From a virus (Duplodnaviria; Heunggongvirae; Uroviricota; Caudoviricetes): 18,357 nucleotides of DNA. Shown here piece after piece: positions 9,516-18,357 of the stretch. Under the pieces are notes generated by a model. That model had not been told where the DNA came from and did not search any database. It saw nothing but the letters and a program-made list of their open reading frames with translations. A program made the position numbers and the translations under genes. The number at the start of each line of letters is the position of its first letter. Position 1 is the first letter of the stretch. The DNA is taken from the IMG/VR virus record IMGVR_UViG_2563366979_000001, positions 1 through 18,357 of that record; one strand, 5' to 3'.

Positions 9516-9600
9516 AGTCAGAGATAACAATCAACTAATACTGTTTTGTTGATTTTTGCTTGTAATTGGCGTTCTGGTCTGATTTTTGTGGAGTAAGTTG

Positions 9601-9978
9601 ATGCGTGATATTCAGATGGTTCTTGAGCGTTGGGGAGCGTGGGCGGCTAATAATCATGAAGATGTGACCTGGTCGTCCATTGCCGCCGGTTTTAAGGGAT
9701 TAATTCCTTCAAAAGTAAAATCTCGCCCACAATGTTGTGACGATGACGCGATGATCATTTGCGGGTGCATGGCCCGTCTGAAAAAGAACAACAGCGATTT
9801 GCATGATTTATTGGTGGACTATTATGTCGGCGGCATGACTTTTATGGCGCTTGCACGTAAGCATGGGCGATCTGATTGTTGGGTTGGCAGGATGCTCCAG
9901 AAAGCTGAGGGCGTAGTGGAGGGTATGCTGATGGTGTTGGATCTCCGATTGGAGATGGATGCTGATTGTTCGAAATAA
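9601..9978 (+). CDS. quuD: Late-gene antiterminator Q (QuuD-like)
   Basis: ATG at 9601 with GGAG 7 nt upstream (ORF-track start at 9586 is a TTG); product [24 protein letters not shown]...[16 protein letters not shown] resembles DLP12 QuuD; position between ylcG and the lysis genes. Confidence 0.85.
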
Positions 9979-10076
9979 TTAAAGGAAAAGTTGCTGTCTG
10001 ATTGTCATTAGTCTAACATTTTAAATGTTGGAATCGCAACGTAGTTATTATCATATAACAGCTTGTTTCCTGATTT

Positions 10077-10105
10077 AGCCAGCCTCCCCAAAGGCTGGTT
10101 TTTTT
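10077..10105 (+). terminator. Intrinsic terminator downstream of Q (candidate tR')
   Basis: Stem CCAGCC (10079-10084) / GGCTGG (10093-10098), 8-nt loop, followed by seven T (10099-10105); oriented for plus-strand transcripts only. Confidence 0.6.
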
Positions 10106-10133
10106 CTAATAAGTATTATTTCGGGTAGGGATT

Positions 10134-10658
10134 TTATTGTTTAACCCATAATAATTCATTGACATTGAATCCCAACTTTTGAGCGGTTCGCGCATAGTCT
10201 GCTTTTACTTTATCTGGAATAGTTGGGGTCCTTGCCAGAATCCATAGGTATTCTCTGTTCGGACCACTGACAAGAGCATACTTATACTCATCATCCAGTT
10301 TGATTACATTATAGCCACCATAGAAGGGGCCAAAAAACGAAACCTTCAACGCTGCAGTTTTAGTATCTCCAGTAAAGTATGCTTTACCTTCGCTCTCGCT
10401 CCATTTATTTTTCGTTGGATCGTATCCACGGTTAAGTACACGAATCCCTCCGTCGTTCCGTTTTCCATAAGTAGCGCTGACCTGTTCCAGACCACGTTCG
10501 AACCGGTTCTCGAGGCGAGCTATTTCATACCATTTTCCGAGGTAGCGGTTGGCGTCAAAATTTGTAATCGGCTGCACACCTTTAGGTGGTGTCGGGGCCT
10601 TACATGCTATAAGAGTGAAAGAGAGTGCAATGCCAGTCAACACAGGCCATAACTTCAT
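10134..10658 (-). CDS. Bacterial lipocalin (Blc-like outer-membrane lipoprotein), divergent paralog
   Basis: 174-aa ORF; lipobox LIAC in signal peptide; lipocalin signature GKWYEIAR plus conserved SEGKAYFTG...LKVSFFGPFYGGYNVI...YLWILARTP blocks that match E. coli Blc as recalled. Confidence 0.85.
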   Translation of the reverse strand: MKLWPVLTGIALSFTLIACKAPTPPKGVQPITNFDANRYLGKWYEIARLENRFERGLEQVSATYGKRNDGGIRVLNRGYDPTKNKWSESEGKAYFTGDTKTAALKVSFFGPFYGGYNVIKLDDEYKYALVSGPNREYLWILARTPTIPDKVKADYARTAQKLGFNVNELLWVKQ

Positions 10659-10690
10659 AATAAATCCTGTACTTTTGATAGTTGAGAGTA

Positions 10691-10740
10691 AGTATGAAAG
10701 ATAGATGATTACGACCGATCACTTAAAGAACTTTCATACT
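10691..10740. promoter_or_regulatory. Perfect 10-bp inverted repeat AGTATGAAAG / CTTTCATACT separated by 30 bp, in the divergent promoter region between the lipocalin and YbgA-like genes
   Basis: Read directly: 10691-10700 and 10731-10740 are exact reverse complements. Confidence 0.4.
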
Positions 10741-10850
10741 ATATTAGGAATAGTCCATAACAGAAAAATTGTCAGTGATGACGCCAGAAAGGCAATTTAT
10801 TCCGTGCACTACACAGTTTATGTGTTAATGAATTAGTCAAGGGGGAGAAT

Positions 10851-11810
10851 ATGATAAAAAAACCTGTGATTGGAATCAGCGGTTGTTTGGCCGGTTCTGC
10901 TGTTCGTTTTGATGGTGGTCACAAAAGAGCTGACTTTTTAATGGACAAATTAGTGGAATGGGTAACATTCAGACCAGTATGTCCGGAAATGGCTATAGGG
11001 CTGCCAGTTCCGCGTCCTGCTCTACGTCTTGTGCGCTCGACGCAAGGAAATATACGGATGTGTTTCAGCTACGACCAGAATGAGGATGTGACAGAGAGAA
11101 TGACAGAGTTTAGTCGTTCTTATATGGACAAATTAAAGGATGTATCGGGGTTTGTGGTTTGTGCTAAATCTCCCAGCTGTGGCATGGAGCGCGTGCGTGT
11201 CTATGATGAAAATGGTAATCGAGGTCGTAAAGATGGAGTGGGACTATTTACGAGCACTTTGATGGAAAAGTTTTCCTGGCTACCGGTTGAAGAGGATGGG
11301 CGATTACATGATCCAGTGCTTCGTGAGAATTTTGTTGAAAGAGTTTTTGCTTTGCATGAGCTCAATCACCTTTACAAGGAGAAATTATCAAGAAGAGAGT
11401 TATTAGCTTTTCATAGTCGTTATAAGCTTCAGTTGTTGGCGCATAGTCAGGCAGGCTATAAAGATATGGGACCATTTGTGGCTGCAATACACGAGTGGGC
11501 GGACCTTGAATCATACTTTGAGGTGTATCGTGATAAGCTGATGGCGATTCTCAGAAAACCTGCATCACGTAAAAATCACACGAATGTGCTGATGCATATA
11601 CAGGGGTATTTTAGTAACTACTTAAGTACACGCCAGCGTAAAGAGTTGAGAGAGGTTATACTTAACTATCGTTCTGGCACATTGCCTCTTCTTGCGCCGT
11701 TGACTCTGCTGAAGCATTATCTGGGTGAGTATCCTAATGATTACTTGCTTACACAGAATTACTTCGATCCCTATCCGGACGAACTGGCTCTAAGACTGAT
11801 GGTAAATTAA
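10851..11810 (+). CDS. DUF523-DUF1722 protein, YbgA/RudS-family putative [4Fe-4S] thiouridine desulfidase
   Basis: 319-aa ORF with strong SD GGGGGAG; N-terminal block GISGCLAGSAVRFDGGHK...RPVCPEMAIGLPVPRPALRL...VVCAKSPSCGMERVRV with Cys12/Cys44/Cys104 spaced like the cluster ligands of TudS-type desulfidases; C-terminal half resembles the DUF1722 part of E. coli YbgA. Confidence 0.8.
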   Translation: MIKKPVIGISGCLAGSAVRFDGGHKRADFLMDKLVEWVTFRPVCPEMAIGLPVPRPALRLVRSTQGNIRMCFSYDQNEDVTERMTEFSRSYMDKLKDVSGFVVCAKSPSCGMERVRVYDENGNRGRKDGVGLFTSTLMEKFSWLPVEEDGRLHDPVLRENFVERVFALHELNHLYKEKLSRRELLAFHSRYKLQLLAHSQAGYKDMGPFVAAIHEWADLESYFEVYRDKLMAILRKPASRKNHTNVLMHIQGYFSNYLSTRQRKELREVILNYRSGTLPLLAPLTLLKHYLGEYPNDYLLTQNYFDPYPDELALRLMVN

Positions 11811-12161
11811 TTGTATGCGATATCATCCAAAAGGATGAGTTCCTGCATGCAGGATATTTACAATCGTAAAAACTACACTATGATACCCAGAGTGTCAGTT
11901 TGTATAAAAACTCTGTTTACGCTGAAGAAACCATTGAGATGCAACTTAAAGTTGGTAAACATGTCAGTCAAAATATATAATATTATGATTCCACGCAGCT
12001 ATATATAATATAACAGATTGGTTTAATAATTTGTCTTTGTGAGTTAAATACATAATTTTATACTTGTGATGCAATGAGATTTTCCTTATTGTTGAACTGG
12101 CGAATATTGATTTTCCACCTATACTTACCTGGTGTAACCCCAATGATATCAGGTGGATAAT

Positions 12162-12893
12162 ATGCCATACATATGTTCTATCATTTTGGTGTTGAACTCG
12201 TTTGATGTCCGAATTGGTAAAGAAGATATTTTGTTTAAAAAAGGAAGTGCTGTTCTCATTGATTACAATTTAAAAGATTTTTTTTCACCAAATATAGATC
12301 ATGTAATGATCGTAGATGTTGAAGAGAAAACAGTTAATGATTTCTTTAAAAGCAACACACTCTCACCTTTTTCTGTAAGAAGGTTTTATCCGGCATACTT
12401 GATGGTGGAATGTGAAGATTTTTCATTGTTAAAGAACTTGATTGCATGCTTGAATTGTGATGGCAGAACTGTGGATGTTGTTAGAAATCAAATATCACTT
12501 GCATGTCTTGCTATCTTATCTTCAGAGAAAATAGTGCAAAGTTTTTTATTTGGATGTCTTAATAGTTTAGGAAGTAAAGTTAAGGCTATTATTCACACGG
12601 ATATATCTGCAGCATGGAGACTTTGTGATATATCTTCAAGGCTGTATCTGAGTGAAAGTCTGTTAAAAAGAAAATTAAAGCACGAAGGCTTATCATTTAG
12701 TAAATTAATTCTTGAAGAGCGAATGGTGATGGCGGAAAGGTTATTAAGCTACAATTTATATTCTGTTGGAAAAGTTGCTGAGATATGCGGTTATGAAAAC
12801 ACGTCATATTTTGTAAGTGTTTTCAGAAGATATTTTGGTGTTCCTCCCCATCAATATTCATCAAGATTTTTTTTAGAAAAAGAAATGATGTAA
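12162..12893 (+). CDS. AraC/XylS-family transcriptional regulator, AppY-like paralog
   Basis: C-terminal AraC-type HTH (LKRKLKHEGLSFSKLILEERMVMAERLL...VAEICGYENTSYFVSVFRRYFGVPP); N-terminus alignable with AppY (YICS.., FKK); ATG 12162 preceded by AGGTGG (ORF-track start 12153 is a GTG inside the SD). Confidence 0.8.
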   Translation: MPYICSIILVLNSFDVRIGKEDILFKKGSAVLIDYNLKDFFSPNIDHVMIVDVEEKTVNDFFKSNTLSPFSVRRFYPAYLMVECEDFSLLKNLIACLNCDGRTVDVVRNQISLACLAILSSEKIVQSFLFGCLNSLGSKVKAIIHTDISAAWRLCDISSRLYLSESLLKRKLKHEGLSFSKLILEERMVMAERLLSYNLYSVGKVAEICGYENTSYFVSVFRRYFGVPPHQYSSRFFLEKEMM

Positions 12894-12954
12894 CGTGATG
12901 CGTTTTAATGATTTTGTGATTTTCGTATTTGATAATTGTATGATGCTTTCAGCT

Positions 12955-12986
12955 ACGCCAGAATAATCGCTGGCGTTTTTCTTTTT
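12955..12986 (+). terminator. Intrinsic terminator between the AraC gene and the holin
   Basis: Stem ACGCCAG (12955-12961) / CTGGCGT (12970-12976), 8-nt loop, followed by TTTTTCTTTTT (to 12986). Confidence 0.65.
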
Positions 12987-13082
12987 GAATAGATGTTCAA
13001 GCCTTACGCTAATGTAACTTCTATACCTTTCCCTCTTCGTTCCGAACCGTGTACACCATCCGTTATTTGCGGAGGTGAGACT

Positions 13083-13298
13083 ATGAAATCCATGGACAAG
13101 TTAACAACGGGCATTGCCTACGGCACCTCCGCAGGCAGTGCTGGCTACTGGTTTTTACAGTGGCTTGATCAGGTCAGTCCATCACAGTGGGCTGCTATTG
13201 GTGTGCTGGGAAGTCTGGTTCTGGGCTTCCTGACTTATCTGACAAATCTGTACTTCAAAATCAGAGAAGACAAGCGTAAGGCTGCGAGAGGTGAATAA
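13083..13298 (+). CDS. essD: Class II pinholin, phage 21 S-type (S21 71/68) with dual-start motif
   Basis: 71-aa product [71 protein letters not shown] is near-identical to phage 21 S / K-12 EssD as recalled; Met1-Lys-Ser-Met4 dual start; SD GGAGGTGA; the ORF-track upstream start at 12993 is rejected. Confidence 0.9.
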
Positions 13299-13504
13299 TG
13301 TCGCCATCATTACGCAAGGCTGTTGCAGCTGCTATTGGTGGTGGGGCTGTTGCCATAGCGTCTGTGCTTATCACTGGTCCGAGTGGTGACGATGGTCTGG
13401 AAGGTGTCAGCTACATACCATATAAAGATATCGTTGGCGTATGGACTGTATGTTACGGGCACACCGGAAAAGACATTATGCTCGGTAAAACGTATGCTGG
13501 TTGA
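13298..13504 (+). pseudogene. rrrD: SAR endolysin (R21/RrrD-type lysozyme) truncated after about codon 66 by a deletion
   Basis: 68-aa [69 protein letters not shown] then AG-stop; matches the SAR domain and E35/D44/T50 region of RrrD/R21 but lacks the remaining roughly 100 residues; start overlaps the essD stop (TAATG). Confidence 0.8.
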
Positions 13505-15665
13505 AGGTTTTCCGCCTTCACATGCCGGGACCATTACCGTCTATGAAGGCTCCAGACCAGGTACGCTGAATGATTTTCTCGGTGCCATGACGGAAGATGA
13601 TGTCATGCCGGAGGCATTGCGTCGTTTTGAGGAAATGGTGGAAGAAGCGGCACGCAACGCTGAAGCCGCCTCTCAGAGCGCAGCGGCGGCAAAGAAATCC
13701 GAAACTGCAGCGGCATCATCGAAGAATGCGGCGAAAACCTCAGAAACGAATGCAGCTAACAGCGCACAGGCGGCAGCGGCCTCGCAGACTGCATCGGCAA
13801 ATTCCGCGACAGCAGCTAAAAAATCAGAAACCAACGCGAAAAATAGCGAGACAGCAGCAAAGACGAGCGAAACCAACGCAAAGTCCAGCCAGACGGCAGC
13901 GAAAACCAGCGAAACGAATGCCAAAGCCAGTGAAACTGCGGCGAAAAACAGCCAGGTTGCAGCAGCTGAAAGCGAGAGCGCAGCAGCCGGTTCTGCGACT
14001 TCAGCAGCTGGATCAGCAACTGCTGCGGCTAACAGCCAGAAAGCTGCGAAGACGAGTGAAACTAACGCAAAGTCCAGCCAGACGGCAGCGAAGACCAGCG
14101 AAACGAATGCCAAAGCCAGCGAAACTGCGGCAAAAAACAGTCAGGATGCAGCGGCCCAAAGCGAGAGTGCCGCAGCTGGTTCTGCAAGTGCGGCAGCTAA
14201 TAGCCAAAAAGCTGCAAAAACCAGTGAAACTAACGCAAAGACGAGTGAAACAAAAGCAGCAGCCAGCGAGACAGAAGCAACGTCAGCCGCAACAAGAGCA
14301 GAGAATGCAGCCCGGATTGCAGAAGATGTCGCTGATCCTGCTTCAGTCCCTCCGCTTCCTGATATCTGGCTACCCTTGAATGATTCTCTGGAAGCGATAA
14401 CAGGGTATGCGCCGGGGTATAAAACAATAACCATCGGTAGTGATGAAATCACTGTGCCAGTTAATGGAATATGTCAGTTTAGCCGGGCTTCATCAGCAAC
14501 GTATATTGATAAGTCCGGGCATATTACCGTGGCAGGTAATAACGTTCCTCGTTTTGAAAAATATGGTTTACTGATAGAGAATCAGCGAACAAACATGTTC
14601 GTAAATAGTTTTAATCCTGATGCCTGGAATAAAAGCGGTGGTATATCTGTAACATCATCAACAGATGAATTTGAGTTTAAATATGGACGTTTCACAGTAG
14701 GAAGCGACATAGCAGGAACGACAACAGGGAGAAATATATGCACAGTTGCTGGTAATAAAGGCATAGATGTGACTGGCGATGATCAGTACAGTAAAGGTCC
14801 GTATGTTACCGCGTCGTTCAGGGTAAGAAGTGATCTCAATGTTCGCGCACGTATCCGTTTTGAACGGTATAACTCGGAAGGATACACTTTTCTTTGTGAC
14901 GCCTATTTGTCATTACAGACCCGTGAACTACAAATTACTGGTGGCAATGCCCAGCTATTAACAGCAAACTTTGAAATCGACCCTGGAAGTGGATGGATAT
15001 ATTTTCAGGCAACACTGAAATGTCTGCCAGAATGGGGAATGGTTGGTACGCAGCTGCAAATTGCAGCCGACAGAGCTGTGGGGTCTTTTGCAACAGGTGA
15101 CTGGATAGAAGTAACCACCCCGCAATTCGAGTATGGTGCCTGTGCAACTTCCTTCATCATAACTACAACAGAGCCAGCGACTCGTGCATCAGATTTATGT
15201 AAATTTCCGCTGATGAAAAATATGTATACCATGCCTTTTACGTTCATGGTGGAAGTCCATAAAAACTGGTTTATTTCTCATAATGCTGCACCGCGCGTAA
15301 TTGATACAGAAAACCATCAGTCAGGTGCTCCATTTATCATGGGATTTGGCTCTTCTGGAACTATCAGTCAGGACGGTTATCCCTATTGTGATATAGGCGG
15401 GGCTAACCGGCGTGTATATGAGTCATGCGGAGTAAGAGATCTCGTTATGGGATTCAGGGTTAAGGCTGACGGCATGACATGCTCATTTGCAAATAAGCAT
15501 ATAAGCACAGAAACAAAAACAGTATGGAAATATATTCGTGAAGCTGCTGTGATTCGTATCGGGGGGCAAACGACGACAGGATTGCGACACCTTAATGGTC
15601 ATATAAAAAATCTCCGTTTCTGGAACAGAGCATTGTCAGATACGCAGCTTAAGGAATACGTATAA
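13494..15665 (+). CDS. Side tail fibre protein (lambda Stf-like), N-terminally truncated, with a LamG/concanavalin-like C-terminal domain; possibly a non-expressed remnant
   Basis: From about 13497 the frame reads [34 protein letters not shown]..., matching lambda Stf from about residue 38; Ala/Ser/Thr-rich SETNAK repeats; C-terminus ends [17 protein letters not shown] (LamG-like motif); upstream part of the 760-aa ORF is the rrrD region in another frame; first in-frame ATG at 13494 has no SD. Confidence 0.7.
13867..14223 (+). repeat. Two imperfect tandem repeats of about 170-190 bp inside stf, encoding the Ala-rich shaft
   Basis: Unit ...[42 protein letters not shown]...AANSQKAAK occurs twice (nt about 13867-14055 and 14056-14223), one copy with a 21-nt indel. 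Confidence 0.6.
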
Positions 15666-17607: not shown

Positions 17608-18357
17608 ATGGATTATGTTTGCTCCGTAGTTTTCATCTGTCAATCATTTGATTTAATTATAAACAGGAGAGTTATCTCGTTCAAAAAAAATTCATTGTTT
17701 ATTGTAAACGACAAAATTAGAAGGGAGTTACCAGTATGCCCCTCTAAACTAAGAATTGTTGATATAGATAAGAAAACATGTTTATCCTTTTTTATCGACG
17801 TGAATAATGATCTGCCTGGCAAATTTACTCTTGATAAGAATGGCTATATTGCTGAAGAGGAACCTCCATTATCGCTTGTTTTTTCTCTGTTTGAAGGGAT
17901 TAAAATAGCAGACTCACACTCCCTTTGGTTAAAAGAAAGACTATGTATATCCTTACTTGCCATGTTCAAAAAACGCGAAAGTGTAAATTCATTTATACTA
18001 ACAAATATAAATACATTTACCTGTAAAATTACTGGAATAATCAGTTTTAATATTGAGCGGCAATGGCATTTAAAAGATATTGCGGAATTGATTTATACGA
18101 GTGAAAGTTTAATAAAAAAAAGATTAAGAGATGAAGGAACGTCATTTACTGAAATATTGAGAGATACTAGGATGAGGTATGCAAAAAAACTCATAACTTC
18201 AAACTCTTATTCTATTAATGTCGTAGCCCAGAAATGTGGCTATAACAGTACTTCATATTTCATATGTGCATTTAAAGATTATTATGGTGTCACGCCATCT
18301 CATTATTTTGAGAAAATAATCGGCGTCACAGATGGAATAAACAAAACAATTGACTGA
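17608..18357 (+). CDS. appY: AraC-family regulator AppY; the TGA stop is the last three bases of the window
   Basis: 249-aa [36 protein letters not shown]... near-identical to K-12 AppY as recalled; preceded by about 540 bp of very AT-rich DNA. Confidence 0.9.

Follow-up and report, generated by a model that had tools for sequence, protein, structure and literature searches.

The DNA analysed here, referred to as the window, is the full 18,357-nucleotide stretch of the viral record IMGVR_UViG_2563366979_000001 (Caudoviricetes) and represents the DLP12 locus (argU type) of an E. coli strain other than K-12. Between the genes for the antiterminator Q and the holin S it holds three cargo genes (10134-12893), predicted to encode an outer-membrane lipocalin, a tRNA desulfidase of the RudS type and an AraC/XylS-type regulator. 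Gene order is identical in the phages and prophages inspected. An earlier sequence-only reading had placed three cargo genes in this classic moron site; the open reading frames, their strands and the holin are as it described, and Pfam returns all the domains it named (Lipocalin_2, DUF523, DUF1722 and the AraC helix-turn-helix). The genes of the interval and the divergent region between the first two are as follows.

9601..9978, plus strand: Q antiterminator of the Q21/QuuD type, 125 aa (open reading frame 9586-9978, with 9601 the annotated start; PF06530, E=2.5e-51)

10134..10658, minus strand: Blc-type outer-membrane lipocalin lipoprotein, 174 aa (PF08212, E=1.9e-43, 148 bits)

10659..10850: divergent intergenic region between lipocalin and rudS, 192 bp, with one weak plus-strand promoter-like site at 10682-10709

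10851..11810, plus strand: RudS, a TudS desulfidase fused to DUF1722, 319 aa (PF04463 at residues 7-149, PF08349 at residues 192-309)

12162..12893, plus strand: AraC/XylS regulator of the PatE/Psr/AppY/YdeO group, 243 aa (open reading frame 12153-12893, with 12162 the start used in relatives; PF12833, PF00165)

13083..13298, plus strand: P21-type holin EssD, 71 aa, with a Met1/Met4 dual start (PF04971); the right boundary of the cargo

The edges of the cargo are sharp. The nin-region genes, rusA and quuD are about 94% identical to K-12 DLP12 at the nucleotide level up to position 9960, inside the 3′ end of Q, where homology breaks off; it restarts at 13072, 11 nt before the holin gene, which is named essD in the annotation of relatives. 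The Q protein also shows weak homology to the solved Q and antiterminator Q structures 6P18 and 6JNX. In K-12 DLP12 the same Q-to-essD interval is occupied by the nmpC porin gene on the minus strand, disrupted by the insertion sequence (IS) IS5, just as the sequence-only reading had stated, and the porin version of the slot occurs in other E. coli genomes as well (H115). The nmpC moron and the cassette thus share a slot whose first gene lies on the minus strand and specifies an outer-membrane product. The genes themselves are unrelated to those of the cassette, both for nmpC and for other cargo of the Q-S interval (cspB/cspF in Qin, stx in Stx phages), and the cassette comprises three genes in two transcription units, whereas nmpC-type cargo forms a single unit. 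Base composition is uneven across the locus, with a GC content of 0.30-0.34 in the regulator and 0.38-0.46 in the lipocalin and rudS, rising to 0.49-0.53 in the nin and lysis regions on either side.

The cassette is common and it travels as a whole. The 3.1-kb interval is matched in 1156 of 5426 complete E. coli genomes and is at least 80% covered in 992 of them. When the query is extended by Q and the holin, about 980 genomes are still at least 80% covered, most of the sampled matches at full coverage. Overall, some 18-21% of complete E. coli genomes carry a prophage RudS, always with the same partner lipocalin. Among the 80 best-matching loci in IMG/VR, to which all linkage counts from that database refer, the five genes from Q to the holin are full-length and nearly fixed in spacing in 61. 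Q precedes rudS by about 1250 nt (by 1249-1251 nt in 77 loci), and in 79 loci the high-scoring segment pair of the lipocalin starts 714 nt upstream of rudS. These counts bear out the co-inheritance between Q and S on which the sequence-only reading had relied. At least three prophage backbones are represented, namely DLP12-type genes (the window and L001), a lambda attachment site beside bio (L010) and Qin-type prophages (L009, L011 and L077). The cassette is found between Q and the holin in 12 isolated phages, for example in IdasGreatGrand at 99.3% nucleotide identity, and at about 90% in infant-gut 'Lambda_' phages including 1H12.

Copies that lack a gene are truncated by IS1 or IS3 in every case inspected, and a natural two-gene version without the regulator is accordingly rejected. 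In BL21(DE3), where IS3 cuts rudS after 49 codons, nothing else of the cargo but the lipocalin is left. The interval 9979-13082 is a frequent target of insertions in general (IS1, IS2, IS3, IS911 and IS200/IS605), the insertion-bearing E. coli matches being H1, H10, H11, H18-H21, H45, H54, H55, H80 and H86. Ratios of non-synonymous to synonymous substitution (dN/dS), taken pairwise between three allele classes that are separated by up to 0.6 synonymous substitutions per site, are 0.08-0.28 for the lipocalin, 0.11-0.35 for rudS and 0.21-0.26 for the regulator. All three cargo genes are maintained under purifying selection. The PADLOC defence models give zero matches for the three proteins, and no paper in the searched literature treats the lipocalin-rudS-regulator trio as a unit. 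Outside E. coli, two short contigs (L065 and L070) of a metagenome-assembled genome labelled 'Candidatus Nanosynbacter sp.', a Saccharibacteria bin, carry the cassette at 93-100% protein identity, which is almost certainly a binning error.

RudS is the best characterised of the three products. It has been defined as a TudS-DUF1722 fusion that turns 4-thiouridine (s4U) in tRNA into uridine (Jamontas et al., NAR 2024, PMC11417400). RudS_vir (gp66 of phage 1H12, NC_049947) is equal in length to the window protein and 92.8% identical to it (23 substitutions), and phage 1H12 carries the same Q-lipocalin-rudS-regulator-holin cassette. Cys12, Cys44 and Cys110 of RudS_vir, the ligands of the [4Fe-4S] cluster, are kept in the window protein, whose residues E46, R55, S107 and S109 match the catalytic Glu51, Arg60, Ser111 and Ser113 of RudS_KT by residue offset rather than by alignment, and its N-terminus aligns to the TudS structure 6Z92. 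Given its identity to the assayed RudS_vir, the window protein is predicted to be a tRNA 4-thiouridine de-modifying enzyme. In E. coli, overexpressed RudS_vir lowers tRNA s4U; it is the weakest tRNA eraser among the RudS proteins tested despite good solubility, and it gives the shortest lag of these proteins on free 4-thiouracil in a uracil auxotroph (PMC11417400). s4U mediates the near-ultraviolet (near-UV) growth delay, which RudS relieves; with a Pseudomonas RudS the ultraviolet A (UVA) growth delay of E. coli fell from about 105 to about 60 min, the host of this published test being BL21(DE3) (PMC11417400).

In its retrieved passages, that article handles the phage gene in isolation, without lipocalin, regulator or prophage prevalence. 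It also says that E. coli lacks RudS and has just the stand-alone DUF1722 protein YbgA, which is true of K-12 and not of the roughly one fifth of strains that carry the prophage cargo. K-12 YbgA has 169 aa, comprises the DUF1722 half alone with no catalytic domain, and is 49% identical to the phage protein over that half. The window protein does not reach the NCBIfam equivalog NF007549 for YbgA (189.4 against a cut-off of 237); since it also has the extra catalytic domain, the RefSeq label 'YbgA family protein' is a loose one. The K-12 ybgA gene adjoins the photolyase gene phr. In none of the 64 related loci is there a phr homologue within 7 kb of rudS.

The lipocalin exceeds the cut-off of the NCBIfam model for the Blc subfamily (NF007786; 313.8 against 267), and its best matches in the PDB are the Blc structures 3MBT, 1QWD and 2ACO, over the full length. 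A lipobox can be read in the translation (MKLWPVLTGIALSFTLIAC19-K, with L-I-A-C19). By the established lipobox and +2 rule, applied here by eye, the lysine at +2 is not an inner-membrane retention residue, and the protein would be sorted to the outer membrane. It shares fold family, length, lipoprotein signal and Blc subfamily score with E. coli Blc (b4149), but is only 60% identical to it, and K-12 blc is linked to ampC/gdx whereas the lineage in the cassette is linked to rudS. In 2020 blc was catalogued as a moron in >50% of 19 lambda-like gut phages, a set in which membrane proteins predominate among lambda morons (Mathieu et al., PMC6969025). With the lipocalin listed there and RudS_vir of the cassette-bearing 1H12 assayed (PMC11417400), the claim of the sequence-only reading that the combination had no described function does not stand.

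The origin of the lipocalin-rudS pair can be traced outside phages. In a scan of one genome per species, 62 chromosomal RudS loci were found in other Enterobacteriaceae, 67-77% identical to the phage RudS, and a lipocalin lies divergently upstream of rudS in 41 of them. Most of these rudS-linked lipocalins share 77-82% identity with the one in the phage cassette (78-82% for Enterobacter, Leclercia and Citrobacter sedlakii; outliers at 69% and 72%), against 60% for K-12 Blc. The common layout, present in 36 loci of Enterobacter, Leclercia, Lelliottia and relatives, is a lipocalin on the minus strand followed on the plus strand by an MlrA-like MerR regulator, a periplasmic transthyretin-like protein and rudS (for example L024 5021-7960, Enterobacter hormaechei). 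In C. sedlakii and one Citrobacter sp. the phage geometry is found, that is, the lipocalin on the minus strand and then rudS on the plus strand, with a spacer of 187-228 bp; the 187 bp of C. sedlakii compare with 192 bp in the cassette. Phage and chromosomal intergenic DNA cannot be aligned, save for a 12-nt motif common with Phytobacter. This motif, TATATTAGGAAT at 10741-10752, is shared by all cassette copies compared and by the equivalent Phytobacter region. A MerR-RudS locus of E. cloacae has been linked to UVA-induced loss of s4U (PMC11417400); in a term search for 'lipocalin' and in the retrieved passages of that article, the lipocalin and transthyretin-like members of the island are not mentioned.

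Chromosomal islands and cassette thus agree in the divergent orientation of lipocalin and rudS. They differ in that the phage copy has neither the MerR-type regulator nor the transthyretin-like gene, and sits in a late operon beside an AraC-type regulator. As the linked chromosomal lipocalins are closer to the phage protein than K-12 Blc is, the lipocalin and RudS probably entered the phage together, as a single unit taken from an island on an Enterobacteriaceae chromosome, with loss of MerR.

The regulator has a different history. It is 54% identical overall to PatE (ECs_0287 of strain Sakai, taken as PatE (Z0321) from its prophage position (Sp1 = CP-933H) and annotation only), 48% to PsrA (ECs_1087) and 32% to AppY; over the DNA-binding domain the values are 72%, 56% and 41%, and the region of the first recognition helix does not differ from that of PatE. 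PatE, a Psr-like protein, AppY, YdeO and GadW align with the regulator over the full length, the N-terminal domain (about 135 aa) being alignable throughout the group. The best PDB match is the DNA-binding domain of GadX, and similarity to ToxT and Rns reaches into the N-terminal domain. The best NCBIfam match, YdeO, scores 131 against a cut-off of 348. An AppY or YdeO orthologue is rejected on these figures and on the presence of the true appY elsewhere in the window. Nearly all database relatives of the regulator come from E. coli and bear no functional name. PatE, PsrA, PsrB and AppY activate gadE/AR2 genes and raise acid resistance (PMC10877973; PMC10057817). The cassette regulator shares protein architecture, size, the N-terminal motif M..CS[VI]I and a prophage-borne AT-rich gene with PatE, PsrA and PsrB of E. 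coli O157:H7 and with AppY of DLP12, and by analogy with these relatives it probably switches on host acid-resistance genes (gadE, hdeAB). PsrA is located within the Q-to-lysis interval of Sakai Sp4, so an AraC-like regulator at this site is a known arrangement. PatE and AppY, in contrast, lie at the far right end of their own prophages and not directly after Q.

Homologues 64% and 57% identical to the regulator occur on their own, flanked by Q proteins of different families (PF03589, PF06323) and by the same type of holin, each with its own promoter and terminator; one of these loci (L161) shares the adhesin-esterase-nin backbone of the window. In the other (L162) the order is Q, tR′, a promoter-like TTGGCA-18-TATACT (10/12), the gene, a terminator and the holin. 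At nucleotide identities of at least 85%, the regulator was found in E. coli only together with the lipocalin-rudS pair. Judged by its distinct GC content (about 31%, against about 43-45% for the pair) and by the homologues that stand alone in the Q-to-holin interval, the regulator forms a moron of its own, with an origin independent of the pair. The single module of the sequence-only reading gives way to two joined morons, which the evidence favours, and its derivation of the cargo from paralogs of the chromosomal blc, ybgA and appY rather than from phage genes is not supported either. YbgA is without the catalytic domain, appY is itself a gene of the DLP12 prophage, and the regulator is far closer to the prophage proteins PatE and PsrA; the three cargo proteins each match existing PHROG phage families, and outside phages the lipocalin and RudS have their nearest relatives in the linked pair of other Enterobacteriaceae.

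Smaller elements around and within the three genes bear on how they may be transcribed.

9950..10076, plus strand: presumed late promoter PR′ and leader (promoter-like TGGAGA-18-AATAAT at 9950-9979, 9/12)

10077..10107, plus strand: intrinsic terminator, probably tR′ (scan hairpin 10077-10100; 9-bp stem with 5 GC pairs, T7)

11811..11900, plus strand: structured region after rudS (-27.9 kcal/mol, z -5.3)

11947..12032, plus strand: apparent relic resembling the Q-proximal leader (9986-10076; local alignment score 53)

12120..12125, plus strand: proximal -10 element TATACT of a putative regulator promoter, invariant

12278..12285, plus strand: T8 tract in codons 39-42 of the regulator, variable in length between copies

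12955..12986, plus strand: intrinsic terminator closing the regulator moron before the holin (scan hairpin 12955-12976; 7-bp stem with 5 GC pairs, T-run)

Short blocks of the presumed PR′ leader are conserved with K-12 DLP12 downstream of quuD, and the position of PR′ is presumed from the PR′-tR′ arrangement of lambda. The hairpin at 10077 (-14.9 kcal/mol, z -3.5) is kept in phage 1H12 and in strain SRY206, and has no U-tract on the minus strand. Lying about 100 nt after Q, it is probably, by the same analogy, the tR′ terminator that Q overrides, and would be part of the late-promoter leader rather than a boundary of the cargo. The sequence-only reading had taken intrinsic terminators to bound the cargo on both sides; both hairpins with their T-runs exist, and only the first has to be reinterpreted. 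The second (-11.3 kcal/mol, z -2.6) has a counterpart at the same place after the L162 homologue. The structured RNA after rudS overlaps a promoter-like TTTACA-16-TATGAT (11857-11884, 10/12), whose hexamers all three cassette variants keep (the window, 1H12 and the Qin-type one). Such an RNA could terminate transcription weakly, form a long leader at the 5′ end of the regulator mRNA or act as a small RNA; a scan of the whole window with Rfam found no RNA family, here or elsewhere.

The leader relic scores well above shuffled sequences (31.7 +/- 4.5, maximum 45 of 300) and is the only repeat in the cassette above chance, all others being short two-copy matches. It is present in the Qin-type variant and may be a recombination scar from the joining of two Q-S cargo modules; as it is largely gone from 1H12, it is unlikely to be functional. 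The TATACT element and the ribosome-binding site CAGGTGG are invariant in five contexts, namely the window, the Qin-type variant, 1H12 and the two lone-homologue loci. A placement of the regulator inside the PR′-tR′ leader is rejected, the lone homologue in L162 having tR′ upstream and a separate promoter. For the lipocalin and rudS, only weak promoter-like sites are seen.

The T8 tract of the regulator is variable. Among 61 IMG/VR loci of the allele class of the window its length is T8 in 50, T7 in eight, T6 in two and T9 in one; the T7 copies span at least four flanking haplotypes and every length other than T8 is a frameshift. In the 94% allele class the tract is interrupted, and zero frameshifts occur in 17 loci. 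N-terminally shortened regulators, one of them starting from Met49, form a separate protein cluster of 623 members, compared with 1131 for the full-length form. In all, a T-tract frameshift or an IS has inactivated the regulator in about a quarter of 85 loci. The tract could be a slippage hot spot or an on-off switch, or plain decay; sequencing error is a less probable source of the variation. The annotated PsrA (L012 13803-14390, Sakai ECs_1087) has 195 aa, about 47 N-terminal residues fewer than the Psr-like protein P0025 (242 aa), and so mirrors the shortened regulator forms.

Taken together, the Q-to-S interval is, with moderate confidence, a composite lysogenic-conversion cassette in which two independent morons are now inherited jointly by lambdoid phages of E. 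coli, whether DLP12-, Qin- or lambda-type. The analysis itself shows the gene identities, their linkage and conservation, the selection on them, the chromosomal origin of the pair and the independence of the regulator moron. One moron would be the divergent pair of an outer-membrane Blc-type lipocalin and RudS, taken as a unit from a chromosomal island, with RudS acting as a [4Fe-4S] desulfidase on 4-thiouridine, a tRNA base sensitive to near-UV, which it turns back into uridine. The other would be the AT-rich AraC/XylS regulator gene with its own promoter and terminator, switching on gadE and hdeAB by analogy. The activity of RudS_vir (PMC11417400) and the targets of PatE, PsrA, PsrB and AppY are those of the literature; we infer the promoters, the targets of the regulator, the role of the lipocalin and the fitness benefit. 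Promoters belonging to the cassette would drive all three genes in a lysogen, and the 12955-12986 terminator would stop this transcription short of the lysis genes; in intact phages, polymerase modified by Q would in addition read rudS and the regulator late in lytic growth. E. coli would thereby gain an eraser of tRNA s4U, an additional lipocalin in the envelope and a further input into acid resistance, with tolerance of near-UV-induced translation arrest and of acid as the expected benefit, together with some envelope function of the lipocalin. The likely role is lysogenic conversion for tolerance of near-UV and acid stress.

A more ambitious version is quite improbable. It would make the three genes one coordinated package for sunlight, envelope and acid, spread by temperate coliphages and consisting of the eraser, its ancestral partner lipocalin and a GAD-type regulator that replaces MerR over the lipocalin and rudS promoters, with the T8 tract as an on/off switch and about a fifth of E. 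coli strains unlike K-12 in near-UV growth delay and stringent response.

The prophage in the window is a defective remnant. The window begins and ends with the following genes.

1-1164, minus strand: intD, at the left end of the window

17608-18357: the genuine appY, at the right end of the window, intact and 99% identical to K-12 appY

No cI, cro, O or P genes are present in the window, the immunity and replication region being absent. A signal-anchor-release (SAR)-type endolysin (13298-15665 region) is cut after 68 codons and overlaps a 760-aa open reading frame with a prophage tail-fibre N-terminal domain. Since the endolysin is joined directly to the tail-fibre frame, the spanin, terminase, head and tail-shaft genes are deleted, and neither lysis nor packaging is possible. 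Read-through driven by Q is consequently plausible in intact relatives and doubtful for the copy in the window.

Several observations weigh against the composite lysogenic-conversion reading. To our knowledge, not even chromosomal Blc has a settled ligand or role. The Q-dependent part of the model may not hold for the remnant prophage of the window. The promoters are consensus matches, and promoter- and terminator-like sites are no more numerous than in shuffled sequence. The N-terminal domain of the regulator is just 40% identical to that of PatE, and the frequent inactivation of the regulator points to weak or conditional selection. Finally, RudS_vir is weak on tRNA and good on 4-thiouracil, so that its preferred substrate may differ from tRNA (PMC11417400).

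This last point leads to the view that the phage RudS acts mainly on free thiolated pyrimidines and nucleotides (4-thiouracil, 4-thio-UMP) in TudS-like salvage or detoxification and not on tRNA. RudS_vir combines the shortest lag on 4-thiouracil with the lowest tRNA de-thiolation per protein level, yet it still lowers tRNA s4U, no RudS supports growth as TudS does (PMC11417400), and the full DUF1722 tRNA-binding domain is kept under purifying selection; this view has a low probability. An explanation from phage lytic growth is also unlikely, if a little less so. UV both induces the prophage and crosslinks s4U8-C13 in tRNA, stalling translation, so a RudS made from the late transcript could erase s4U after UV induction and keep translation going during particle production. 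That rudS and the regulator lie on the late-transcript strand straight after Q and tR′, that plaque-forming phages retain the cassette and that RudS relieves the s4U-mediated near-UV growth delay (PMC11417400) would all fit. However, the lipocalin is on the opposite strand, little time is left for bulk de-modification of tRNA late in a short lytic cycle, and the cassette is kept with low dN/dS in defective prophages (the window and L077). The pair is moreover chromosomal in many Enterobacteriaceae, which points to a role in host physiology without any phage. Neutral hitch-hiking of cargo DNA in decay, which the many IS insertions and truncations and the frameshifts of the regulator might suggest, is very improbable in view of dN/dS values of 0.08-0.35 across alleles up to 0.6 synonymous substitutions per site apart, a gene geometry that is fixed across backbones and the presence of the cassette in about a fifth of complete E. 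coli genomes.

Two further alternatives, both held to be rather improbable, concern single members of the cassette. The regulator might act locally on the divergent lipocalin and rudS promoters as a replacement for the MerR/MlrA-like protein, the three genes then being a single regulon. The chromosomal islands do have a MerR-type regulator between lipocalin and rudS where the phage version has none, and close copies of the regulator are seen in E. coli only with the pair; its resemblance to ToxT and Rns, which sense fatty acids, takes in the N-terminal domain, and fatty acids are also ligands of lipocalins. But no repeat or operator-like motif is common to 10659-10850 and the region upstream of the regulator, close homologues stand alone after Q with no lipocalin or rudS nearby, the characterised relatives all act on host genes, and the lipocalin and rudS remain intact in copies without the regulator. 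The lipocalin, for its part, might serve at the phage-host surface in superinfection exclusion, envelope remodelling or capture of hydrophobic antibiotics, comparable to nmpC, bor and lom. It is an outer-membrane lipoprotein by lipobox and Blc homology, the K-12 slot holds an outer-membrane porin that is also on the minus strand, and membrane proteins are the predominant lambda morons (PMC6969025). Its nearest relatives, though, are chromosomal and linked to rudS rather than to phage receptors, it is among the proteins without a PADLOC match, and an exclusion phenotype of Blc is not known.

Much of what the composite cassette contains was already known, in that assays exist for one enzyme, the lipocalin is on record as a moron and the family of the regulator has been studied. 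What is added, within the literature searched, is the chromosomal lipocalin-RudS pairing and its capture by phages, the prevalence of prophage RudS in E. coli, the two-moron structure and the T8 variation that disables the regulator. The finding extends current concepts and overturns none. With RudS on prophages of E. coli, differences between strains in tRNA 4-thiouridine, in near-UV/UVA growth delay and in solar or UV disinfection may be prophage-dependent. The pairing with RudS across genera offers a clue to the role of bacterial lipocalins. The regulator would be a further member of the prophage AraC-like activators (PatE, PsrA, PsrB, AppY) feeding acid resistance, and one that occurs mostly in non-O157 commensal and clinical strains.

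The early region of the window carries cargo of its own. A 1303-aa inverse autotransporter (2672-6583, plus strand), an intimin/invasin-like adhesin with Big_1/Invasin_D3 repeats, is followed by a 347-aa esterase of the BD-FAE/alpha-beta-hydrolase type (6620-7663, minus strand). Neither has a match among the PADLOC models. The two genes occupy the place of emrE-ybcK-ybcL-ybcM in K-12 DLP12, and the same pair is found on the L161 backbone. At the other end, appY (17608-18357) and the PatE-like gene (12162-12893) give the remnant two regulators of one AraC subgroup. A related intact prophage in L001 adds ybcM, which brings the number of AraC-type regulators to as many as three in one prophage.

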